From Candidatus Poribacteria bacterium (GTDB taxonomy: Bacteria; Poribacteria; WGA-4E; PCPOR2b), in assembly GCA_965222805.1 (NCBI GenBank), contig CBDCUX010000005.1:444723-508722 (forward strand): DNA of 64,000 bases. The letters run 5' to 3'. The first letter of the stretch is position 1. Every line of letters starts with the position of its first letter. The notes under the pieces were generated by a model, which saw only the letters and a program-made list of their open reading frames with translations, was not told where the DNA came from and did not search any database. The translations under genes were made by a program, and so were the position numbers. Of this stretch, positions 5,610-17,380 are shown one piece after another.

Positions 5610-5674
5610 AACTAAATACAGCAGATACACTTGAGATAAACAACAAAGATCGGAAACAGCTAGATGATTTTGTT
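5610..5674 (+). repeat. Copy A of a ~65-bp dispersed intergenic repeat (AACTAAATRCAGCRGATAC..TTGAGATAAACAACARAGATC.GAAAC..CTAGAYGATTT)
   Basis: Aligns by eye at about 85% identity with 7711-7776. Confidence 0.7.
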
Positions 5675-5744
5675 GTACAGCAGTCATTCATTTTGTAGAG
5701 GCGCGGCTGTAGAAAGCGAGCAGTTTAAGGGGAAGTTAAGAGCT

Positions 5745-5895
5745 TCTGTGAGAGAGGCATCCCTGCCTCGATTATCGGCAATAGCAACAGCACCACACAT
5801 ACCTGTGGGAGAGGCATCCTTGCCTCGATTATCGGCAGTAAAAACAGCACCACACATACCTGTGGGAGAGGCATCCCTGACTCGATTATCGGTAG
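5745..5895 (+). repeat. REP-like hairpin array, 3 copies with a 57-bp period, upstream of the RAYT gene
   Basis: The unit TGTGGGAGAGGCATCCYTGCCTCGATTATCGGCA plus conserved filler ..AACAGCACCACACATACC occurs three times. The palindromic core is GAGGCA-TCCY-TGCCTC, at 5754, 5811 and 5868. Confidence 0.85.
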
Positions 5896-5926
5896 AAAGA
5901 ACCCCGGCCCACCCAAAGGAGAAACC

Positions 5927-6400
5927 GTGAACTGTTTTCCAAGTCGAGGAAGCCATCGATTACGGAAAGGACGACAATCAATATCGGGGGCATACTATTT
6001 CCTGATCGCTTCCACGTTTGATCGAAGACCGATACTCGCAAACTCTGAAGTTGTACGAATCATTTTTGAAACCTTTGAATGGCTAGAAGCTCAAGGTCGC
6101 ATCAGATGGACATGTATCATGGTCATGCCGGACCATATCCACGCCGTTATTCAACTGGGTAGAGATCAAACCTTACCAAAAGTCATGCATTCTCTCAAGA
6201 CCTTTACAGCGAGGCAGATTAACAAACAACGTGGTGAACACAGTACAGTATGGCAGGAAGGATATTATGACCACGGCATCCGGAGGGACGAATCTTTGAA
6301 CGAAATTATACGCTACTGCTATGAGAATCCAGTTAGACAAGGCCTAGTCAAACAAGCAAAGGATTATCCATATTGGCGATATAAATACAACATAGAGTAG
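5927..6400 (+). CDS. REP-associated tyrosine transposase (RAYT; IS200/IS605-like Y1 transposase family)
   Basis: 157 aa. YYFLIASTFDRRPIL, the HUH region MPDHIHAVIQL, a catalytic-Tyr region QEGYYDHGIR and ENPVRQGLV are present. REP arrays flank it on both sides. It has a GTG start. Confidence 0.85.
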   Translation: MNCFPSRGSHRLRKGRQSISGAYYFLIASTFDRRPILANSEVVRIIFETFEWLEAQGRIRWTCIMVMPDHIHAVIQLGRDQTLPKVMHSLKTFTARQINKQRGEHSTVWQEGYYDHGIRRDESLNEIIRYCYENPVRQGLVKQAKDYPYWRYKYNIE

Positions 6401-6586
6401 GAGAGGCATCCTTGCCTCGATTCTGTGGGAGGGGCATCCCTGCCCCGACTTGTGGGAGAGGCATCCCTGCCCCGATTTGTGGGAGAGGCACCCTTACCTC
6501 GATTCTGTGGAAGGGGTATCCCTGCCCCGACTTGTGGGAGAGGCATCCTTGCCTCGACTGTCGGGAAAAGGATTTCCCTCCCACAG
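6397..6586 (+). repeat. REP-like hairpin array, 6-7 tandem copies with a 27-28-bp period, starting at the RAYT stop codon
   Basis: The unit GTGGGAGRGGCATCCYTGCCYCGAYT(T) repeats at 6397, 6425, 6452, 6479, 6507 and 6534, with a degenerate copy at 6560. Each copy can fold as GRGGCA/TGCCYC with a 4-nt loop. Confidence 0.9.
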
Positions 6587-6748
6587 TATCTCTATCTCGA
6601 TTCTCATGTTATAAGGGGTTGCAGGGAGATTAGGAAGTTGCCTCACGACTTTGCTGTAAACTTAACATCATGCTGTATATCATCAGGAGCAGGAATCAAA
6701 ATATGTTGAGGAAGGGTAGAAATAAAAGAAAAACAATATGACGTCGCC

Positions 6749-7123
6749 TTGTCATTTGCTGGGGAGGATCGACACTACGCCAACAAGTTAGCCAAACTTC
6801 TTGAGGCCGGGGGATATTCCGTCTTTTATGACAAATTTGAACGGGCGCAGCTTTGGGGCAGAGACCTCTATGTTCACTTGTCATCGGTTTACAAGGACCA
6901 AGCGCACTACTGTGTCATGTTCCTGTCTGAACACTATGCCCGGAAGTTGTGGACAAAACACGAACTCCGAAATGCTCAAGCAAGGGCATTTGAGGAAAGT
7001 CAGGAGTATATTCTTTCGGTCCGTCTTGACGACACGGAGATTCCGGGAATTTTGCCGACAGTCGGATATCTTGATTTAGATTCAATGACCATCGAAGAGA
7101 TCTGCCAGATTTTAGCATCGTAG
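6749..7123 (+). CDS. TIR domain protein; the start appears disrupted (a likely frameshift separates the ATG at 6703 from the TIR frame)
   Basis: The in-frame sequence reads (Y)DVALSFAGEDRHYANKLAKLLEAGGYSVFYDKFE..LWG...CVMFLSEHYARKLWTKHELRNA...LSVRLDDTEIPG, the bacterial TIR signature including the conserved Glu. The only conventional in-frame start is TTG 6749, which falls inside the conserved first strand. An RBS-preceded ATG at 6703 lies in the +1-shifted frame and stops at 6739. Confidence 0.8.
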   Translation: MSFAGEDRHYANKLAKLLEAGGYSVFYDKFERAQLWGRDLYVHLSSVYKDQAHYCVMFLSEHYARKLWTKHELRNAQARAFEESQEYILSVRLDDTEIPGILPTVGYLDLDSMTIEEICQILAS

Positions 7124-7224
7124 GTTGGGTTGAACGGTTGAAAATGTCTCGCTATCAAGGACAGCAGCATTTCTGCCTTTCAACACCATGTTCTTACAGA
7201 TAGCGAGAGTGAAACCCAACACCC
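7119..7224 (+). repeat. Copy 1 of a ~105-nt structured dispersed repeat (nested inverted repeats)
   Basis: CGTAGGTTGGGTTGAACGGTT...CTCGCTATC...GATAGCGAG..AAACCCAACACC. It starts on the TIR stop codon. An inverted copy lies at 34383-34487. Confidence 0.7.
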
Positions 7225-7242
7225 ACAACCAATGAACCAACC

Positions 7243-7324
7243 TAGCCCCAGCAGGGTAGCATGTATATAGCAATATCCAATCCCTACACACCCAAGCCCC
7301 AGCGGGGCGACATGTGTATAGAAC
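7243..7324 (+). repeat. Two copies of the dispersed hairpin element AGCCCCAGCGGGGCGACATGTnTATAG
   Basis: The copies are at 7243-7271 (TAGCCCCAGCAGGGTAGCATGTATATAGC) and 7294-7324 (AAGCCCCAGCGGGGCGACATGTGTATAGAAC). The stem is GCCCC/GGGGC with a 3-nt loop. Confidence 0.8.
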
Positions 7325-7411
7325 GAACGAATTAACCCATCCCTTGGGTCAAGCAGCTAGTCGGCGGTAACCTAGTTTAAAATACTATCAACCCACGCAT
7401 GGAGACCCCTC

Positions 7412-7711
7412 ATGTCACAAGACCTCAACTATCAAGAGAACATCCTTAATATTCTCAAGAACCTTCAGGGAATCGAACCCCTCCGGGAACTGTTCTGGAC
7501 AGAGTTAAACTACGATCGTCAAAACGAAGGAATCTCCTACCAAAACTGGACAGACACGGCTAAAAATGCCCTCGCCGAGGAGCCAATTCTCTTTGCGACG
7601 GGCGGAACAGACAATGCCTTTGAGGTCATCTATGCCCGTCTCAACTCCGACCGTCTGCTGCTGACAGCTGAACGTCCTGTCATCTCTCGTCTCCTACAAG
7701 ACCACCCTTAA
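7412..7711 (+). pseudogene. N-terminal 99-codon stub of a type IIG restriction-modification / Eco57I-like methyltransferase family gene (tentative)
   Basis: LRELFWTELNYDR....W.......L.EEPILFATGG.DNAFEVIYARLNSDRLLLTAERPVISRLLQDHP resembles, from memory, the conserved N-terminus of proteins over 1000 aa long in this family. Here the ORF ends at a stop codon that coincides with the first bases of repeat copy B (7711). Confidence 0.45.
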
Positions 7712-7776: not shown

Positions 7777-7902
7777 TTAATCCCTTCAACCTCACACAAG
7801 GGGAACGGACTGGCGTGTATGAGGCGGTTGTTCACCTTGGGGAGACATGGCTGCGGAAAACGGGCAGTTTGAAGGAGGGTTAGGGAGTGCCTCGCGACTC
7901 TA

Positions 7903-7931
7903 TTGACACATGAATAGTTGGGTGTTATGCT
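7903..7931 (+). promoter_or_regulatory. Sigma70-like promoter candidate (TTGACA-17 nt-TATGCT) inside a conserved intergenic module
   Basis: TTGACA is at 7903-7908 and TATGCT at 7926-7931, with a 17-nt spacer. The upstream 45 nt resemble 6611-6661, which precedes the TIR gene. Confidence 0.35.
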
Positions 7932-8221
7932 TGACCATATAAGTTAGCAAATCCGGGGGCACAAAATCTGGATAAAGTAAGAAAGCAGCTTCACTCGATT
8001 GAGTGCATTCTATCCACCAAAGCGTCTGATCCTGATGGGCTTTTTCGCTCTTGAAAATGAAATTGGACAAACGGATATTTGAACTGTATAATTTAATATA
8101 GAAGGAAATCTTCATTGAGGAGGAAATCACCCAACCGAAAGAAGATTAGCCTTATGATTATACAATCAAATTTCAAAGCAGCAAAGAAGGTGAGAGCCGT
8201 GGCAAAGCGTGATGCCCATAA

Positions 8222-8386
8222 GTACATAAAATTATTCGTCGTGGGATTACTAATGACCTAAATAGGCGTGAGAGGGAACACCAGCAAGAATATGGCAATA
8301 ATGTTCATATTACTAAGGTTGGGAGGGCCACAACACGAGAAGGTGCTAGAGACTGGGAAAAAGATCGAAAACGTGGTACTCCTTAG
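8222..8386 (+). pseudogene. Possible remnant of a small GIY-YIG-like nuclease/toxin-type gene (no usable start in frame)
   Basis: The frame reads KIIRRGITNDLNRREREHQQEYGNNVHITKVGRATTREGARDWEKDRKRGTP-stop. GITNDLNRR..EH resembles the GIY-YIG core. An ATG ORF at 8154 in another frame could have been the original N-terminus, joined by a frameshift at an A-run near 8226. A terminator follows. Confidence 0.25.
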
Positions 8387-8420
8387 TTGCCAGAATTCTT
8401 TTCATTTTCTACAACAAAAG

Positions 8421-8461
8421 CCCCTGAAACCCCTAACCAATTGGGTCTCAGGGGTTTTTGT
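8421..8461 (+). terminator. Rho-independent terminator candidate
   Basis: The stem CCCCTGAAACCC (8421-8432) pairs with GGGTCTCAGGGG (8443-8454) with one mismatch, followed by TTTTTGTT. Confidence 0.6.
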
Positions 8462-10029
8462 TATTGCTAAATCCCTGAGAACTATAGTGTTAGATTTTAG
8501 TAGTAGAACTGAATGCATTCACTACCATCTCATCATAGTGCTACCGAACATGATTTAATAATAATGCGATAGATCGACTAATATACTGGTTATATAATCA
8601 GGAAGGTTGAAGAATCAATTCAATGGGCTTTGGACGCATATCGTGAGAACCGAAACAAAGCTGGCCTCTTTAAGACTGTTGACCAAAGCTGGTTAGGGGA
8701 GGATCGAGAGATTCTTCTACTTCACTTCTGTAGATATATCACCACGATATGCAAAGCTATAGAGGAATGCCATGGAAAAAGTAGACTAACAACAAGGGGA
8801 ACGTTGATCGAATGAGTGAAACGATGACAATTTTGGAGGTATCAATATGAATGAGCGGCAATTTGCGGGTGCCCGGTGGTGGAAATTTGATTTTCATACT
8901 CATACACCTGCCTCGGATGACTTCAAGGACAGAGATGAGACAACACCTGAATCTTGGCTGAAAGCGTTTATGGAAAAGGAAATTGATTGCGTAGCGATTA
9001 CCGATCATAACAGCGGCGGATGGATAGATAAGTTGAAACAGAAGTTAGCAGAATTAGAGGAAAGCAAACCCTCTTGGTATCGCCTCCTGTACCTGTTCCC
9101 GGGCGTGGAAATTTCAGCAAACGGCGGTGTGCATATATTAGCGATCTTTGGATGTGATAAGAATAAGGGCGATATTGATGGGTTGCTCGGCGCGGTTGGC
9201 TATTTAGGTACAAAGGGCGAGAGCGATGCTGTAACGAACGAAAACATTACCAAAGTCGTTGATGAAATTGCAAAACGGGAGGGCATCCCTATTCCCGCGC
9301 ATGTTGATAAAAAAAAGGGGTTATTTCAGCTTTCAGGACAAACACTGGAACAAGTGTTGGAGAATGAAAACATTTACGCGATGGAGTTGCGTGACAGCGA
9401 GTGCCAGAAGCCCCCATCGTACACGGAAAAAAAGGTGGAATGGACTGAAGTTAACGGTTCCGATACTCACAGTTTCAGCGATAGCACATTTGGCACGTTT
9501 ACCTGGATTAAGATGGATGAACCCTCCATAGATGGGTTGGAACTTGCGCTGATAGACGGTAGTGCTTCTGTAAATCGAGACATAAAGACCCAAAGCAGCG
9601 TGCAGAGTTCCTTATAGAAGCGATAGAAATTAGCGAAGCAAAGTACATTGGGCGCTCCGAGCCGTTGCATTGTCAGTTCAGTCCGTTTCTCAACACGATC
9701 ATTGGTGGGCGTGGCAGCGGCAAGTCCACACTACTGGAGTTTATGCGTCTAGCTTTGCGGCGTAATAAAGACATTCCGGAGATGCTAGAAAAGGAGAACC
9801 GTCAATACTTTAGTGTAGAGGAGGAGGACAGCTTACTGACTGAGGATAGCAAAATATCGCTGATCTATTGCAAAGGCCATGTACGCTATCGTTTGAGCTG
9901 GTCGCCCAAGGTAGATGATCTCTCTTTGGAGGAGAAAAAAGATGGTGATTGGAAACCTTGTCCAGGTGAAATCAAGTCGCTTTTTCCGGTACGCATTTAT
10001 AGCCAGAAACAGATCTTTGAATTCGCTAA

Positions 10030-10916
10030 GAACCTGTTTGAAAAAGAAAAAATCTGACTCAAGAGTTCATGTTTACGTCCAATCATTGGAGCAGTGAATA
10101 CCATTCCAATGAAAGGCATAAACATGACCCGAACAACCTATCCCACGGATTTGACCGATGCCCAGTGGGACAATCTGTTCCCCTATCTGCCAAAACCTTC
10201 ACCGGTAGGTAGACCGCTCAAATGGGAGATGCGCTCAATCATCAACGCTATTTTTTATATAGTCAAATCAGGGTGTCAATGGCGAATGCTCCCGCATCAG
10301 ATGCCCCCATGGCAAACGGTCTATTCCCATTTCAGAAAATGGAAAGCCGATGGCACATGGGTGATGATTCATCAAGCACTTCATCACCAAACCCGTTGTG
10401 ATATTGGCAAAGTGCCTTCACCGACAGTCGCTATTATTGACAGCCAATCGGTCAAAACGACTGAACTGGCAGACAGTCGAGGGTTTGATGCACATAAGAA
10501 GGTCAAAGGGCGTAAACGTCATATAGTCACCGATACAATTGGCATTCCATTGCGGGTGAAGGTCACTGATGCCAATGTCAGTGATAACCAAGTCGCAATA
10601 GAGTTACTCAAAGAGGTTTTTAATTGGCACATAACGATTCAGTTAGTCTGTGCGGATGCGGGTTATCGCGGAGAATTAGGTGACTGGTTATATATGGCGC
10701 ATCAGTGTCGATTGGACATTGCGCCATCTGTTAGGCAATCAGGATTTGTAGTTATCCCCTTGCGGTGGATTGTGGAGCGCACCTTTTCTTGGTTCGCTTG
10801 GTTTCGTCGATTGACTGTGGACTATGAACGCTCCGCTGAGACTGCTGAGGCTATGATATACATTGCTTCCATTTACTTGATGCAAAACCGTATCAAATGA
10901 CTTTTAAAACAGGCTC
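10030..10916 (+). mobile_element. IS5-family insertion sequence (887 bp) with imperfect terminal inverted repeats and a TAA target duplication
   Basis: The left IR GAACCTGTTTGAAAAAG (10030-) pairs with the reverse complement of the right IR CTTTTAAAACAGGCTC (-10916). TAA is at 10027-10029 and 10917-10919. It carries a single transposase ORF. Confidence 0.85.
10124..10900 (+). CDS. IS5-family transposase (DDE)
   Basis: MTRTTYPTDLTDAQWDNLFPYLPKP..GRPLKWEMRSIINAIFYIVKSGCQWRMLP....W.TVYSHFRKWKADGTW is the canonical IS5 (IS427/ISL2-like) N-terminus. DDE region: IIDSQSVKT, ADAGY, IVERTFSWF. The start could also be 10094 or 10109. Confidence 0.9.
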   Translation: MTRTTYPTDLTDAQWDNLFPYLPKPSPVGRPLKWEMRSIINAIFYIVKSGCQWRMLPHQMPPWQTVYSHFRKWKADGTWVMIHQALHHQTRCDIGKVPSPTVAIIDSQSVKTTELADSRGFDAHKKVKGRKRHIVTDTIGIPLRVKVTDANVSDNQVAIELLKEVFNWHITIQLVCADAGYRGELGDWLYMAHQCRLDIAPSVRQSGFVVIPLRWIVERTFSWFAWFRRLTVDYERSAETAEAMIYIASIYLMQNRIK

Positions 10917-12594
10917 TAAAGATCCACGCGCACTAATCGATATTATTGATGAAGCTGCTGAGGTTGAAGCGGAGACGATTGAAGCGCAGCGCAGGAGCTT
11001 GGTCAACCAATACAAACAAATTGAGAGTGAACAACGAGAGCTGAATGAGAAAATTACCCGGGAAAATCGGCTGCGCGGTGAGTACTATGATCTGACAAGG
11101 CAGATTGAGGAAATAGAAAAATCGGCGCATGAAGTTGTACTACAAAATTACCGTAAGCGGGAGCAACAGCTAAACGAGCTTGATAGCTTGGAGAGTGAAT
11201 GGGAAGATATGGGGCAGCGTCTTGCGGAAACGCGAAAAAGTATTGCCCCGGTACATTTCAATGAGCAGCTTTTTAGTGAGCACACCGATATTTTGTCGGT
11301 TTTAAGAGAAACAAACAAGAAATGGCTGGCTATCCGCGACAAATTAAGCGCATTGGAACGGGAGGCACAGTCGGTTACCACCGACTGGTACGCTGAAAAA
11401 AATGCGGCGGACTGGATGCAGACGCTCGAGACAGATATGGAGCAGTACGAGTCATTATCCACCAAACTTGAACAGCAAGGCATAGACCCAGGCAGATATC
11501 CCCAGCTATTAACGCAACAAAAGAGCATACAAAAGGAGTTGGATCTAATTAGCGAATATCAGTTACGCGAGAAGGAGTTAGAAGCCGAAAAACGAGCGGT
11601 CTTTAAGCAGATTAAAGAAAATAGGAAAGTGTTGTCGAAAAAGAGGCGAGAATTCTTGACCAATGTTTTACAAAACAATCAAGCTGTCAGCATTGAGGTC
11701 AAACCCTTTGGTGAAGATTGGGAGGGCATAGAGGAAGATATTCGAGGTATACTGCAATGCCCGGATCGTTTCGGCAGAGATATTGCAAGCTTAAAAGATA
11801 TTTATCAGGGGAATGGGGGCAATCAGATTGAAAAACTCAAAGAAACTGTTATACGTATTCGCAGTGGAGAGCAAGCTGCCACGGATGCCCGGTTTGTTCC
11901 CCATTTGGAATCGTTGCCGCAAGAATCTATGAGCGATCTCATTTTATGGTTTCCCGGGGATGATTTGAAAGTCACCTTTGGCCGCAAGCGTCGGCCGATA
12001 GAACAAGGTTCTCCTGGACAAAGAACTGCCGCGCTATTGGCGTTTATTTTATCTTACGGTGATGAGCCCCTATTGCTGGATCAGCCTGAGGACGACTTAG
12101 ATAACGAGTTAATCTACAACTTGATTGTCGAACGATTGAGAGAAACAAAAAGCAAGCGGCAGATTATCGTCGTCACGCACAATGCCAACATTGTGGTTAA
12201 TGGTGACGCGGAAATGGTTTTGCCGCTCAAGGTCGAGAGCGGTGAAACCAAGGTACGACAGGCTGCTAGTATTCAAGAAAAAAAGATTCGGCAAGCAATA
12301 TGCGACATTCTGGAAGGTGGACAACAGGCATTTGAACAGCGTTATAAACGTATTCATCTGGGGGATTAGTGATGTTTATAATGTGCCCCGAAATCTGTAC
12401 TACCGATTAAGTCAGAAATTCGTCGAATGAATACTGATACAGAACTGAAATCCGCGGACTTCATGATAACCTGCGACAATCCGCGATTCAGACAAGTGTC
12501 GAAAAAAATCGTCATTGTAGAAAAAGTCCTTGACAGAAAATTAACCTCGTGATTACATCACCAAACTTCCAAATTGGCACAGGAGGATAAAACC

Positions 12595-13008
12595 ATGAAT
12601 GGTACAGAAAAAGTCGTCAAACATTTGGAAATGACCCAAGCCGTTATTAACCGTTTGGGGAGTAATAGTTTCTTGGTCAAAAGCTGGAGCATGACCATCA
12701 TTGTCGCAGCGATGATTTTGATTACCAGACAGAACATACAAAACCCATATTTTGTCTTGGTGCTTATTCTTCCCGCCCTCGGGTTTTGGATTCTGGACAG
12801 ATATTTTCTCAGGCAAGAGCGGTTGTTTCGACAAATATACGACGAAATCAGAGTTCAATCCGATACCGATTTCGAGATGAATCCTACGAAGCACAAAAAT
12901 AAGCCCCAATGTAGCTGGTTCTCCGCTTTCTTTTCTCTCACCCTTGTTATCTTCTACATAGTAGAGATTGCCTTCATCATCGGCGTATTTGTCATCGTCA
13001 AGACGTAA
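12595..13008 (+). CDS. Small integral membrane protein (about 3 predicted TM helices), unknown family
   Basis: 137 aa from the ATG after RBS AGGAGGA. The N-terminal amphipathic helix TEKVVKHLEMTQAVINRLGSNSF is followed by hydrophobic segments WSMTIIVAAMILI, YFVLVLILPALGFWIL and FFSLTLVIFYIVEIAFIIGVFVIV. The antisense 170-aa ORF has no features. Confidence 0.6.
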   Translation: MNGTEKVVKHLEMTQAVINRLGSNSFLVKSWSMTIIVAAMILITRQNIQNPYFVLVLILPALGFWILDRYFLRQERLFRQIYDEIRVQSDTDFEMNPTKHKNKPQCSWFSAFFSLTLVIFYIVEIAFIIGVFVIVKT

Positions 13009-13063
13009 CTTTGCCCCGATAATCTTATGGCATAGATGCATAGTAATGTCTTTAAACACAATC

Positions 13064-13528
13064 ATGAATAAAAAAAAGACAATATATCTGGCAAACCCCT
13101 ACGGCTTCTCAGAGCAACAGCGAGAAACCCTATTACCCGCTCTCATTAAAGCATTGGAAGCAGTTGGCTTAGAAGTATGGGAGCCGTTTGAACGCAATAA
13201 TCAAGACAGATTATCCTCCGGCTGGGCGTATCGACTGGGACAAAAGGACAAGCAGGATGTATTCGACGCGGACGGGATTTTTGCTGTCGTGAACGGAGTA
13301 CCACCAGACGAAGGAGTCATGATTGAGCTAGGGATAGCGATAGCGCTAGGTAAGCCCACCTTCCTATTTCGGGACGACTTTCGACGTGCCGCCGATAGCG
13401 ATGAATACCCACTCAACCTGATGATTTTCACAGGCTTACCCCAACTCGAATGGGAACGTTACTACTACACATCGATCAATGACATCCCATCGCCCGATAA
13501 AGCACTGGTAGCTTGGGCTAAAGAATAA
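13064..13528 (+). CDS. Nucleoside 2-deoxyribosyltransferase family protein
   Basis: MNKKKTIYLANPYGFSE...ADGIFAVVNG.PPDEGVMIELGIAIALGKPTFLF is the classic NDT-fold pattern with the conserved Glu. The start could also be ATG 13046. Confidence 0.8.
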   Translation: MNKKKTIYLANPYGFSEQQRETLLPALIKALEAVGLEVWEPFERNNQDRLSSGWAYRLGQKDKQDVFDADGIFAVVNGVPPDEGVMIELGIAIALGKPTFLFRDDFRRAADSDEYPLNLMIFTGLPQLEWERYYYTSINDIPSPDKALVAWAKE

Positions 13529-13569: not shown

Positions 13570-16500
13570 TTAAAACTGAACCCCCGCAAAGAACCCCGGC
13601 CAAACGCGAACGGTCGTATCACCGCTTTGGTATACGTGCTCAAATCCATATCCAAAATCCGAGGTGTCCCGTTTATCCGAGACGAGGAAGTTGAGCGAAA
13701 GACCACCGAAGACGCTGAACCATTTGTGCCGCTCCCAGCCAAACCCAAGCCGCACTTTATTCAGGATGGTACGTTCATCAGACCACCAAGTGTCCTCCTC
13801 CGCCTCATCGGTATAAGTCACTCCGCGCGTAATAAAGTCAACGTTCAGAAAAAATTGTTGCCTGAGTGGAATATGTCCACCGATACCAAACCCAGACGAC
13901 CATCTGCCCAAATCGCCGTGTGGGTAACTGCCAACCATCAATAGACTATAAACGTGTCGGCTACCGAGGCGGACCCCAAGGTTTGCAGCCTCCGTATCGC
14001 TACCCCACAATTGCAGGTGCAGCGGGTTATCCTTAACAAAGCTGATTAATCCGAGCGGGACGCCGGACATCCGTCCGGAGACATTGAGAAGCCCAATCTG
14101 CGCCGTTCTCACATGCCCAGCGATATTAAGAAGTCCAATCTGTGTGTCAATATCACCATGCGCAATATTGACCGCACTAATCTGTGTGCTGGTGCCTCGG
14201 GTATCTGCCTCTTGGCCCCAACCAAGCGCGATATTAGTGGCTGCGCTGATTTGCGTCCCCTCCAAATTCCCGGCGATGTTGACCCCGGCTGCGATTTGTA
14301 GGCCCTGACTTAACACATTTCGCCCAACAAGATTTAGCCCGGAGCTAATCTGTAATCCCTGAAGGTTGCCACCTGCAAAATTACCCCCGCCAGCGGATTG
14401 AAAGCCCCGGACATTTCTACCGGTGGCGTTGAGTCCTGCCGCCATTTGGAAGCCGTTGAGGTCCCTGCCGCTGACGTTGAAACCACCCGAGGCTTGGAAA
14501 CCCTCCACATCTCTACCGACAGCGTTGAGTCCGCCTGAGATCTGAAGACCATCTACATCCCTACCAACGATATTGCCGACCCCGGCAAGTTGCGCACCCC
14601 GCGCTTCGATCCCCTTCATGTTCAAAATTCCACCCAATTCGATGCCATCCAACTTCGTATGATAGCCTGCAATGATGTTGATGGAAAGGTTCGTTGTAAT
14701 ATTGCGGTTAGGATCTTGAAACCCGGCGGTGCTTATCCACGGAATCAGTGAAATCGTCATAGGCAGATACAAATCGTTACCTTTTGCGGTTACCGGTGTA
14801 ACACCATCGCCCTTTTCTGACGGAGGAAACGGCACCAAGCCGGGGGTAGGTTGAGGCTGCGAAACATTGGTAACTTGGGGAGGTAGTCCTTCATTGTTGA
14901 TCACCGCGGGATCAATGCCTTGGTTGTTCAGGAGTGATATATATTTCCCGTTATAAAAAACACGAGGTGTAATCTGCTGCGGATAGTGTTGCTCTTCGGA
15001 CAGATAGGAATGCCACTCCTCAATGCCGCGTGTCACATAATCCAATAGTCCCAACACTGTGACAGTCCCATCGGCCCCCGCTGCGCCCCGGTCTTGGTGG
15101 TCACCGCGCAACCCTTTGAGCAAGAAGTAGGTAAACAACCCATGTTTGAGTCGCGGTACTTCAGGTGCCCACTGATTGCTGTCACACGCAGTGAAGATAA
15201 TATTGCTCTCTTCACTATAACGCGACAGCCCTGCAACAAAATATTCCTTCGGTGCTACGCGACACGCATCAACAATGACAAAGCGGTGTTTCGCGTTTGC
15301 GCTGTTGAGAACCGCAAACAGGTCTTCGAGGCTCAGCCCGTTGTCCACGAGTGGATCGGTGACATCCATCGGCAGAAAGTAGCCTGTTCCATCAACATCC
15401 TCTCCATGTCCGGAGAGATAAACAGTCAGCAGGTCTACCGCTTCAAGTTGGGCGTGTCGTTGGAGCTGCTCAATTACATTCGCCTTCGTCGGTTGAATGA
15501 GGCTATCGGGTGTCATCAACGTCACATTGACTCCTGCGTCTTGGAACACCTGCGCGACCGCTTTGGCATCATCGGCGGCATATTTGAGGGATTGGAAGGG
15601 GGACGGATAGGCATCCACGCCGATAACAATCGCCCAATGCCGGATGTTGACACCGCTCGCAGCACCAAGCTGGAAATTGCCACCCCCAGCGAGAGCTAGC
15701 GCCCGTCGACCCACCTCTATCATCTGCCCTTTTATCGTCGTGAGGGTTAATGTTTCGTCTTGCTGTGCCATCAAGTCGGTAGAGAAAAACACCTCATCGA
15801 AGCGATTCTCTGGACCCTCAAGGACAGGCTGCCACGCCAGATCCCACTGTCTATGATCGTTCTGAACGTGCTGAACAAGTTGTCGATACGTCAGTCCATC
15901 GGACCCTTGCCCCCCAATCGCCCCATTTGCAGGATTTTGCAACCGGGAAAACACCCGTCGATAGAGGGAATAGGTCATCGCGCTGATAGGTAGATAGGTT
16001 TTACCAATCGGGATGCGCAGTTCATGGACGACCTGGTTGTAGGCAGAAGCCGCTAACAGCAGTGCAAAGTCGGCGGATTCGTCTAAGATGTCCTCCGTAT
16101 GGCTCACGGTCTGGGTAGGTCGAACGACAACCGTTGGAGTATCCGTCGCCGGCGTGCCTTTGGGTCGCCCTAGACGAATCTCTCGGAGTATGTCGCCGGA
16201 GTAGCATGTGTCGATAATGCAGGAGACCTGTTGCGTCGGCAGCTCTTGGAGTAAAATGTTGAGCTCATCATCAAGGAGGTAGGTCCTCGGTGATGCCAGA
16301 TCTGCGTCCACAGGCAACAGCACTTCGTCGTTCCTGTCCGGGTAGCGTCCTTTCGCTTCATCCCCCGGAAAAGTTCCGAGTTTGTCAATAATCTGTGTCC
16401 CATGCCCACTAAAATAAAAAAGCAGGCTATCGGAAGGGGTCAGGCGTCGGCTGAGTTCCCGGAATCTACGCTGAATCTGCGCCTTGTTCGGATTGGTCAG

Positions 16501-16722
16501 GATATGCATCTGTTCCTGTGTGATACCCTGTGCCGAGAGAACCGCTTCCATCAGCTTCAAGTCGTTTGGCGGAGCCTCCAACTGCAAATTTGGATTTTCA
16601 TAGTCCCAAACTCCCACAAGGATGGCGTGTTGCTCGGCGTGGATAAGCTGCGAAAACATTAAGAAAAAGCTACAGACCAACAGTATCCATCGAACCGTTG
16701 ACCCCAACCTATTTTGAACCAT
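13570..16722 (-). CDS. Secreted tandem-caspase (two peptidase C14 domains) protein with a 16-aa G-x-Q repeat region and a C-terminal beta-barrel-like domain
   Basis: - Signal peptide MVQNRLGSTVRWILLVCSFFLMFSQLIHA.
- Domain 1: HAILVGVWDY...FYFSGHGTQ...CIIDTCYSG.
- Domain 2: WAIVIGVDAY...VYLSGHGED...FVIVDACR. The His/Cys dyads are intact in both domains.
- A Pro-rich linker, then about 10 repeats such as GLQISGGLNAVGRDVE.
- The protein ends ...VWPGFFAGVQF (C-terminal aromatic residue, OMP-like).
- ATG 16722 has a GGAG RBS and overlaps the upstream stop by 14 nt. Confidence 0.85.
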   Translation of the reverse strand: MVQNRLGSTVRWILLVCSFFLMFSQLIHAEQHAILVGVWDYENPNLQLEAPPNDLKLMEAVLSAQGITQEQMHILTNPNKAQIQRRFRELSRRLTPSDSLLFYFSGHGTQIIDKLGTFPGDEAKGRYPDRNDEVLLPVDADLASPRTYLLDDELNILLQELPTQQVSCIIDTCYSGDILREIRLGRPKGTPATDTPTVVVRPTQTVSHTEDILDESADFALLLAASAYNQVVHELRIPIGKTYLPISAMTYSLYRRVFSRLQNPANGAIGGQGSDGLTYRQLVQHVQNDHRQWDLAWQPVLEGPENRFDEVFFSTDLMAQQDETLTLTTIKGQMIEVGRRALALAGGGNFQLGAASGVNIRHWAIVIGVDAYPSPFQSLKYAADDAKAVAQVFQDAGVNVTLMTPDSLIQPTKANVIEQLQRHAQLEAVDLLTVYLSGHGEDVDGTGYFLPMDVTDPLVDNGLSLEDLFAVLNSANAKHRFVIVDACRVAPKEYFVAGLSRYSEESNIIFTACDSNQWAPEVPRLKHGLFTYFLLKGLRGDHQDRGAAGADGTVTVLGLLDYVTRGIEEWHSYLSEEQHYPQQITPRVFYNGKYISLLNNQGIDPAVINNEGLPPQVTNVSQPQPTPGLVPFPPSEKGDGVTPVTAKGNDLYLPMTISLIPWISTAGFQDPNRNITTNLSINIIAGYHTKLDGIELGGILNMKGIEARGAQLAGVGNIVGRDVDGLQISGGLNAVGRDVEGFQASGGFNVSGRDLNGFQMAAGLNATGRNVRGFQSAGGGNFAGGNLQGLQISSGLNLVGRNVLSQGLQIAAGVNIAGNLEGTQISAATNIALGWGQEADTRGTSTQISAVNIAHGDIDTQIGLLNIAGHVRTAQIGLLNVSGRMSGVPLGLISFVKDNPLHLQLWGSDTEAANLGVRLGSRHVYSLLMVGSYPHGDLGRWSSGFGIGGHIPLRQQFFLNVDFITRGVTYTDEAEEDTWWSDERTILNKVRLGFGWERHKWFSVFGGLSLNFLVSDKRDTSDFGYGFEHVYQSGDTTVRVWPGFFAGVQF
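14045..14660 (-). repeat. In-frame 48-nt periodic coding repeat (G-[LF]-Q-x-[AS]-G-G-x-N-x-x-G-R-[DN]-V-x)
   Basis: Consecutive 16-aa units are visible in the translation (GAQLAGVGNIVGRDVD, GLQISGGLNAVGRDVE, GFQASGGFNVSGRDLN, GFQMAAGLNATGRNVR ...). They resemble surface-repeat (LA_2272-like) proteins. Confidence 0.7.
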
Positions 16723-17380
16723 TCTGCGCTCCTTTTGTAAAATTTTCCAACAGATCTGAAAAACGTTGGCGTTCAAGCGATAACTTCTCTACCATCGCAT
16801 CGCGCTCGGCGACGGGCAGTTCCCCCAATTTGAGTCGAGATTGGTACAGTTCGACCAGTTTGGCGCACATCGCAAAGTCTTCGGGATGCATCTTCAAAAA
16901 CGTTTCGACCGTTTCAATTGAGGCGGTGAGTTGTCCTGCGTCCGTCGATTCGGGCACAATGAGAAATTCCAACATCCCCTCCGCTGAGAGAGGTGGGGTG
17001 ATGCGTCCTGTAGTTTCACTTCCCTTTTGAGCACCCCATTCTACCGACGGGGTGAGCGGCGAAAAAGTTGCCATAACGAAAAGCAACAGCCCCACCACAC
17101 CGATAGCAGACGGCGCCCATACCGGCACCGGCGTTTTCAATTTTTCGCGTATTTCCAACCAGAGGGAACGGTGCCGAATGGGCAGAAATGGCGGTGCCGT
17201 CGCCGAAATAGAATCAGTCCGAACAGCACCCCCAAAATTTTTTAGTGATTTCTCTGTCTCTTGCAAAATTCTATATTTCCGTTCACACTCTTCGCAGCCA
17301 AGGAGGTGTTCCCGAATCTGAGGGGACAACTCCTCACCAATGGAGCGGAGCAGCTTTTCTTGTACTCGATTACATTTCAT
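16709..17380 (-). CDS. Anti-sigma factor (zf-HC2 type), single-pass membrane protein
   Basis: MKCNRVQEKLL...IREHLLGCEECERKY is the zf-HC2 motif. The TM helix is VWAPSAIGVVGLLLFVMATF. RBS AAGGAGG precedes ATG 17380. Confidence 0.8.
   Translation of the reverse strand: MKCNRVQEKLLRSIGEELSPQIREHLLGCEECERKYRILQETEKSLKNFGGAVRTDSISATAPPFLPIRHRSLWLEIREKLKTPVPVWAPSAIGVVGLLLFVMATFSPLTPSVEWGAQKGSETTGRITPPLSAEGMLEFLIVPESTDAGQLTASIETVETFLKMHPEDFAMCAKLVELYQSRLKLGELPVAERDAMVEKLSLERQRFSDLLENFTKGAQNGSK

Follow-up and report, generated by a model that had tools for sequence, protein, structure and literature searches.

The 64,000-nt stretch of Candidatus Poribacteria DNA analysed here (contig CBDCUX010000005.1; hereafter the window) carries what are very probably the remains of a trlF-trlG module, lying at a conserved and defence-rich position in Poribacteria and inactivated by three lesions: the deletion of the partner gene trlG, a net 4-nt deletion within trlF, and the insertion into trlF of an IS5-family insertion sequence (IS). 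This is the ordinary decay of a known defence module, and the gene is a dead new member of the known TrlF/Ppl family. Three open reading frames (ORFs) on the forward strand (8847-9617, 9665-10057 and 10897-12369) are parts of a single gene of about 878 codons. The original prediction, made from the sequence alone, had already joined them into one gene (of about 877 codons) and held that this gene had been killed twice, by a frameshift and by an IS; both of these lesions are borne out, but with the deletion of the partner gene they number three. The features of the locus, in window coordinates, are the following.

8847..9617, + strand: trlF/ppl-like pseudogene fragment 1, with its native start and GGAGG 8 nt upstream
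9581..9587, + strand: frame-shifting lesion, read as a net 4-nt deletion in the linker between PHP domain and ATPase; the gap is aligned after 9586, its position being ambiguous
9581..10029, + strand: fragment 2, in frame -1 relative to fragment 1; start of the ATPase head; Pfam AAA_23
10027..10029, unstranded: target-site duplication TAA, left copy
10030..10916, + strand: IS5-family insertion sequence, 887 bp, with inverted repeats, a transposase and ends common to other copies
10030-10045 and 10901-10916: left and right inverted repeats (IRL and IRR), matching at 14/16 positions
10124-10900, + strand: transposase ORF, 258 aa from ATG; the longest ORF runs from GTG 10094
10917..10919, unstranded: target-site duplication TAA, right copy
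10920..12369, + strand: fragment 3, coiled-coil arm and C-terminal half of the ATPase head; Pfam AAA_21 and SMC_N
12372..12377, + strand: trlG start remnant (ATG TTT), 2 nt past the trlF stop, matching L001, L023, L003 and L007 of the comparison set described below
12378..12523, + strand: sequence replacing trlG, with ~90% identity to the same position in the Poribacteria locus L002

When the IS is removed together with one TAA and base 9581 is read twice, the repaired ORF has 877 codons and no internal stops, and over its full length it aligns with intact proteins of 877-879 aa, to which it is 81% identical; the ancestral protein was probably 878 aa long. Every motif that had been listed beforehand, from the PHP domain to the H-loop (FDFHTHT, DHNS, GGRGSGKST, SPGQR, LLLDQPEDDLD and VVTHNAN), is found in the repaired translation. 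Fragment 1 holds a complete PHP phosphoesterase domain (residues 1-245) that ends at base 9581, after which an out-of-frame tail of 11 residues leads to a stop, giving a 256-aa ORF. Fragment 2 contributes the Walker A motif (GGRGSGKST) and the Q-loop (SQK) of an ABC/SMC-type head, and fragment 3 the signature motif (SPGQR), Walker B (LLLDQPE), D-loop (DDLD) and H-loop (THN). The ORFs as called mechanically do not coincide with these pieces: that at 9665-10057 extends 28 nt into the IS, and that at 10897-12369 begins at an ATG within the right end of the IS. Judged from its reading frames, the locus as assembled cannot give a full-length protein. An annotation should join the three ORFs into a single entry, a pseudogene of the TrlF/Ppl family of defence genes.

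The family to which this pseudogene belongs is clear from the hidden Markov model searches. Over practically its whole length the repaired protein matches both the PADLOC Ppl model (PDLC02208; E 2.4e-145, residues 7-873) and the NCBIfam TrlF_fam_ATP model (NF045780; 588 bits against a cut-off of 350, residues 8-874). With 576.9 bits it fails the cut-off of 1000 for the NCBIfam Ppl_antiphage equivalog (NF042955), and it is therefore a member of the TrlF/Ppl family and not an equivalog of E. coli Ppl; of the assignment to Ppl and the TrlF family that had originally been proposed, the family part stands and the narrow Ppl part does not. Enterobacterial plasmids carry full-length homologues of 41% identity under the RefSeq name "TrlF family AAA-like ATPase", and there are weak PADLOC matches to LmuB, AriA and GajA. 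In Pfam the repaired protein matches AAA_21, SMC_N and AAA_23; the match to the PHP family (PF02811) is weak (E 0.055), and because of this the PHP fold was modelled directly.

The AlphaFold model of window residues 1-245 has a mean predicted local distance difference test score (pLDDT) of 86.6 and a predicted template modelling score of 0.87, and its best Foldseek matches in the PDB are the PHP phosphoesterase TM0559 (2anu, E 2.6e-9), endonuclease Q (EndoQ, template modelling score 0.68) and BVU_3505, along with 3e38, RNase AM and the PHP domain of Pol III alpha. The set of PHP metal ligands (H17, H19, D25, H54, E88, H96, H152, D206 and H208) is present and is invariant or near-invariant in the family. 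For the remainder we used a full-length model of the 81%-identical homologue (P0001, pLDDT 78), in which the head and coiled coil match MukB, Smc, JetC, RecN, Rad50 and Lamassu LmuB; by sequence the top PDB match is Rad50. All of the ABC motifs (Walker A, Q-loop, signature, Walker B, D-loop and H-loop) are there in the repaired protein, with the head split by the coiled coil. Thus the profile matches and the predicted folds agree on the architecture originally proposed, a PHP domain joined to an SMC-like ATPase; neither a sequence nor a fold search of the PDB found a Ppl or TrlF structure. The alignment of 77 intact relatives (39-80% identity) has 167 columns in which conservation reaches 95% or more, and the repaired protein retains 166 of them, the sole exception being N250K.

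For the genomic comparisons we took species-representative loci (given L numbers) for the best 80 of at least 475 genomic relatives. Everything that had been said of the IS is confirmed: it is an 887-bp element of the IS5 family at 10030-10916, with imperfect inverted repeats and a TAA duplication. The left end (GAACCTGTTTGAAAAA) and the right end (the reverse complement of GAGCCTGTTTTAAAAG) have 14 of 16 positions in common, and a degenerate pattern made from them occurs twice in the window, both times at the IS termini, against 0.03 occurrences expected by chance. Its transposase is an IS5-family DDE enzyme (NF033580, 231 bits with a cut-off of 110; Pfam DUF4096 and DDE_Tnp_1). Deleting the element with one TAA does restore the frame, as foreseen: the product IFEFAKDPRALI aligns without a gap to IFELAKNPRALI in 15 intact homologues (873-880 aa, at most 81% identity), and this places the insertion in the TAA of codon 395. 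Alleles without this insertion are indeed present in related metagenome-assembled genomes (MAGs), the empty site being seen in the orthologous, syntenic Poribacteria loci L001, L023 and L002. The alignment of the window DNA with L001 runs over 8732-10032 and resumes over 10916-12377, breaking exactly at 10032 and 10916; L023 and L002 align in the same manner.

The closest transposases (258 aa, 87-90% identity) are from Poribacteria, in clusters of up to 761 member sequences, and at this level of identity they are confined to Poribacteria and to ENA sponge assemblies; a metagenome scan with the transposase gave only relatives at 48% identity or less, and BLAST found no further copy of the element in the rest of the window or in the 80 related loci. 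In two other copies, on Poribacteria contigs, the similarity to the window begins at 10030 and ends at 10916; one of them (in L086) is flanked by TTA on both sides and the other ends ...GGCTC|TAA. Given these shared ends and TNA flanks, the element is a discrete multi-copy IS that duplicates TNA. Members of the IS1031 group are ~850-950 bp long, have ends in GAG/GAA and one ORF, and make a 3-bp TNA duplication. The window element resembles them in its 887 bp, its one 258-aa transposase, its GAACC/GAGCC ends and its TAA (TTA in another copy), and it may belong to this IS1031-like group (ISfinder) within the IS5 family. As a lineage-specific isoform with no verified name, it should be entered in an annotation as an IS5-family IS. 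At its right end the ATG at 10897-10900 overlaps the transposase stop (ATGA) and is in frame with the last 490 codons of trlF; the same right-end ATG is present in the other copies. The overlap could possibly give a translationally coupled hybrid ORF here, although we regard both this IS-borne start for the last 490 codons and the free PHP domain encoded by the first ORF as incidental.

The frameshift is where it had been predicted to be, near 9570-9590, and it has the predicted net effect on the frame, but its size is not the 1 nt that had been proposed. Eight homologous DNAs align across 9540-9630, and every one of them has 4 nt more there than the window does (GACATAAA----GACCC); the segment S241-P249, which has 9 residues in the minimal repair, has 10 in the 48 closest relatives (as also in comparison with the 15 homologues). 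By these alignments the lesion therefore amounts to a net loss of 4 nt, whether in one deletion or in two (of 3 nt and of 1 nt), and not to a single-base change. Its context, GACATAAAGACCC, contains no homopolymer. The deletion falls in the linker between the two domains, which in the model of the 81%-identical homologue has a pLDDT below 50 at residues 240-252, and the near-invariant Asn that is changed by N250K lies right beside it.

The third lesion became apparent from the genes downstream of trlF in the relatives. In L001 only 2 nt separate the intact homologue from a downstream gene of 407 aa (10640-11863) with Schlafen AlbA_2 and HATPase_c_4 domains (the latter "recG C-terminal"), and tblastn places such a TrlG-like gene of ~400 aa 5-28 nt downstream of trlF, in the same orientation, at 72 of the 80 related loci. 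A trlF-trlG pair is likewise annotated on the Pseudomonas savastanoi plasmid pPsv48B and on a Burkholderia thailandensis plasmid, and a solo TrlF is found on the Citrobacter freundii plasmid pBKPC18-1. What is new here, judging by this gene order, is that trlF in this clade is normally half of a two-gene trlF-trlG module, and the "single-gene" Ppl family may thus be mostly a two-gene module. No TrlG-like coding sequence exists anywhere in the 64-kb window (tblastn, E<=10). All that is left are the two codons of the start remnant, followed by a replacement of ~150 nt that is shared, at ~90% identity, with L002 only, a locus that also lacks trlG and in which trlF is also broken by an IS. It seems probable that trlG was deleted in a common ancestor of the window and L002 loci; the loss of trlG is then probably the oldest of the lesions, because this junction is common to the two. 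L002 has, in addition, a 3' fragment of a trlG-like gene 9 kb upstream, adjoining a 29-nt repeat. Upstream of trlF no small trlR-like ORF is conserved in the 80 loci, and there was no match to the small gene upstream of the B. thailandensis trlF, the Photorhabdus TrlR sequence itself not having been compared.

The other two lesions are probably younger. The ratio of nonsynonymous to synonymous substitution rates (dN/dS, by the Nei-Gojobori method) is 0.21-0.24 for pairs that include the window and 0.23 for the intact pair L001-L023; with a clean frame, 166 of 167 conserved columns retained and a dN/dS like that of intact genes, the 4-nt deletion and the IS insertion must therefore be recent. 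Most of the history of the gene thus appears to have passed under purifying selection, which, if the shared junction reflects common ancestry, would have continued after trlG was lost. An excess of private substitutions (15 in the window protein against 9-12 in similarly isolated intact sequences) was considered as a sign of decay and was not convincing, the dN/dS values showing no decay.

Ppl is said to have been described by Gao and co-workers in 2020 as a single-gene anti-phage system of E. coli. The window gene resembles it in combining a PHP nuclease with a P-loop/SMC-like NTPase in one polypeptide of ~880 aa and in keeping the catalytic motifs of both domains; the difference is that Ppl acts alone, whereas among the window gene's closest relatives an adjacent TrlG-like gene is the rule (90%). 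The resemblance to Lamassu LmuB, Wadjet JetC and Rad50-Mre11 is limited to the ATPase head with its coiled coil: in the window protein the PHP nuclease is fused in cis, at the N-terminus, and the system is without kleisin, KITE or Mre11-type partners. According to the accounts of Xu et al. (Mol Cell 2026;86:180) given in PMC12904381 and PMC13434339, E. coli Ppl is a 3'-5' single-stranded DNA exonuclease that is inhibited by nucleoside triphosphates (NTPs) bound at its PHP and NTPase domains and that senses the 3'-OH ends produced by phage homing endonucleases. Phage Bas63 counteracts Ppl by means of gp130 (PMC11482910).

The name TrlF comes from the temperature-restriction locus (TRL) trlR-trlF-trlG of Photorhabdus laumondii (Hapeshi et al. 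2020, PMC7554251). There TrlG was formerly mis-annotated as RecG, the locus takes IS insertions under selection (Table 1 of that paper), and the growth restriction at 36 °C maps to trlG and not to trlF; the paper draws no tie between the TRL phenotype and phage defence. The relatives of the window gene share with this locus the order trlF-then-trlG and a TrlG with AlbA_2/HATPase_c_4 domains that is often mislabelled RecG, and IS insertions occur in the locus in both cases. In the window, by contrast, trlF is a pseudogene and trlG is deleted, and no conserved trlR-like small ORF was found upstream in the 80 loci of the clade.

From these comparisons the most likely history of the module is the following. 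Intact TrlF has a PHP metal-dependent nuclease at its N-terminus and, joined to it, an ABC ATPase of the Rad50/SMC-like kind into which a coiled coil is inserted. If its homologue E. coli Ppl is taken as a guide, it would have acted as a 3'-5' single-stranded DNA exonuclease held inhibited by bound NTPs, to be freed when a phage depleted the NTPs and exposed 3'-OH DNA ends, so that the phage DNA would be degraded. The module lost, presumably in this order, the Schlafen AlbA_2/HATPase_c_4 gene trlG, leaving two codons, and then the reading frame of trlF, through the net 4-nt deletion in the linker between PHP domain and ATPase; the intact-looking 887-bp element entered the TAA of codon 395 and duplicated it. 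The outcome is, at most, a free 256-aa PHP domain plus non-functional fragments.

Several points weigh against this picture of a dead module. The exact products of the ORFs 10897-12369 and 8847-9617 and of the 258-aa transposase ORF have no record elsewhere, so the lesions are without independent confirmation. There is no intact allele of more than 81% identity in a collection of 5.8 billion proteins, and the population in the sponge may at the same time include uninterrupted copies of the gene. It is possible in principle that the 4-nt deletion is a fault of assembly or consensus. That trlG was lost first rests on one shared junction, which recombination between lineages could also produce, and the pairwise synonymous distances (dS) are star-like. 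The mechanism, moreover, would be borrowed from E. coli Ppl, whose equivalog cut-off the window protein misses. If the first of these points are pressed, they lead to the view that the real gene is intact, the frameshift having arisen in sequencing or in the consensus, or else the IS junctions through chimeric assembly. Such an artefact would fit with the absence of the exact ORF products from every other assembly, and indels are possible in MAG consensus sequences, yet we consider it very unlikely. The two flanks of the IS together make up one gene, its halves correctly ordered and oriented; there is a 3-bp duplication, and the frame is restored exactly. The flanks are collinear with three orthologous loci, whereas a mis-join at a repeat would connect unrelated ones. 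A 4-nt indel in the non-homopolymer context GACATAAAGACCC is untypical of sequencing error, and the deletion of the partner gene is also found in an independent assembly, that of L002.

It is also conceivable that the locus has been remodelled and is not dead, its pieces still being used as a free, unregulated PHP nuclease and a 490-aa C-terminal piece. The 256-aa ORF does stop exactly at the low-confidence linker between the domains and retains its native start and ribosome-binding site, and the ATGA overlap at 10897-10900 sets fragment 3 in frame with the ATG of the IS. We nevertheless give this even less credence than an artefact: no such split is seen in any of the 77 intact relatives, the middle piece with the Walker A motif has no credible start codon, an ABC ATPase head requires both of its halves in one chain or a defined partner, and there is no new dN/dS regime. 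An in-frame ATG has, besides, a 1-in-3 chance of arising by coincidence, and two sister MAGs are broken at other places (residues ~120 and ~624). Finally, programmed frameshifting at 9581-9587 might restore the frame and leave the IS as the only lesion. The shift required is indeed -1, and a CCCAAAG heptamer occurs in the region, but this heptamer does not have the register that slippage out of the upstream frame would need. The 77 intact relatives all read through in a single frame, the 48 closest each having one residue more; the gene would in any event be split by the IS. On the grounds of the register and of the single-frame relatives we rejected this last explanation, to which we attach hardly any probability at all. 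The dead trlF-trlG module accounts best for the locus.

The window is not the only locus in which trlF has been broken. Among the 80 related loci a split trlF is found in L002 and L045 only, both from Poribacteria and both without an adjacent trlG. In L002 (OZ242315.1, 6429-8006) an IS with a 477-aa DDE_Tnp_1_4 transposase and a TATTTA duplication lies at residue ~120, and in L045 (CBDCTK010000002.1, 9867-10912) one with a 339-aa DDE_5 transposase and perfect 17-nt inverted repeats at residue ~624; the three disrupted copies, that of the window included, are thus all from Poribacteria and each carries a different IS. Disruption occurs in 0/72 loci with an adjacent trlG as against 2/8 without it (Fisher p = 0.009), or 3/9 without it when the window is added (p = 0.001), in what is a small sample and with statistics that ignore phylogeny. 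Intact solo trlF genes are present in L004, L014 and L021. The association between the loss of trlG and the disruption of trlF is suggestive only. One might speculate that TrlF is half of a TrlF-TrlG module in which the loss of TrlG makes TrlF dispensable or harmful, so that its repeated knock-out follows; we find this rather doubtful as matters stand. If it were true, TrlG would have a regulatory or antidote-like role, and the temperature restriction of Photorhabdus would be linked to the autoimmunity of a Ppl-type defence system. More widely, the association suggests that in a family now treated as a single-gene system the two genes may depend on each other, which can be tested. On plasmids, the best two matches to the repaired protein are in pieces as well (four in CP085522.1 from E. 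coli and two in CP146542.1 from K. michiganensis), the pieces being unannotated or split "hypothetical proteins"; disruption of TrlF genes may thus occur on enterobacterial plasmids too.

The genes that flank the pseudogene are collinear with, and 72-94% identical to, those of the Poribacteria MAG OZ244825.1 (L001), and they include a pyridoxal-phosphate-dependent enzyme, MgsA, DUF5683, SnoaL and cupin proteins, a nucleoside deoxyribosyltransferase, a caspase-domain protein and a TonB receptor. The window is therefore Poribacteria chromosome, with the gene at a conserved position. In the region from 8 to 13 kb the guanine-plus-cytosine content is slightly below that of the flanks; promoter and terminator scans and the base composition of the window gave nothing informative. 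The best relatives of the gene come nearly all from MAGs of sponge symbionts, including Poribacteria, Caldilineaceae, Spongiihabitans, Poriferihabitaceae and Nitrospirales. The loci L001-L046, at 45-80% identity, are almost all sponge-associated MAGs, and they span the Poribacteria, Chloroflexota, Gammaproteobacteria, Nitrospirota, Nitrospinota, Bdellovibrionota and Alphaproteobacteria; relatives at 44% or less come from other habitats. This distribution suggests that the trlF clade has been exchanged among sponge symbionts, although the composition of the databases may contribute to it.

The surroundings of the pseudogene are a defence hot spot in decay, one more case of turnover in a sponge-symbiont defence island. 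Upstream, the 99-aa ORF at 7412-7711 (also 7782-8526) is the N-terminal stump of a 1212-aa type IIG restriction-modification gene of the Eco57I/MmeI type, of which ~3.2 kb is gone from the window; with this gene reduced to a stump, the locus therefore holds a second dead defence gene. The type IIG gene is intact in L023 (2278-5916), and L001 has only fragments of it (6639-7226 and 7272-7625). Further upstream a lone TIR_2 ORF (6749-7123, + strand, 124 aa; Pfam 4e-17, PADLOC PDC-S66 8e-12) has no counterpart at the same position in L001 or L023. An IS200-like Y1 transposase of the RAYT type (5927-6400) is 87% identical to one in L002 and is flanked, at 5664-5930 and 6348-6650, by short repeats that translate as GEASLPRLS-like units; the same repeats are also found downstream of trlF in L002.

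From one related genome to the next, the stretch separating trlF from the deoxyribosyltransferase gene varies in content: L001 and L023 have trlG there, L002 an AAA ATPase together with a 209-aa gene. In the window a gene at 12574-13008 (+ strand) for a 144-aa predicted membrane protein, which matches PDC-M50A, a component of a PADLOC candidate system, end to end (E 7.7e-38), directly precedes the nucleoside 2-deoxyribosyltransferase gene (13060-13528). Beyond it, on the opposite strand (13570-16776), is encoded a protein of 1068 aa that has two caspase (Peptidase_C14) domains and is rich in repeats in its C-terminal half; it matches the PADLOC "caspase" model (E 5e-34) and is syntenic in L001, at 82% identity.

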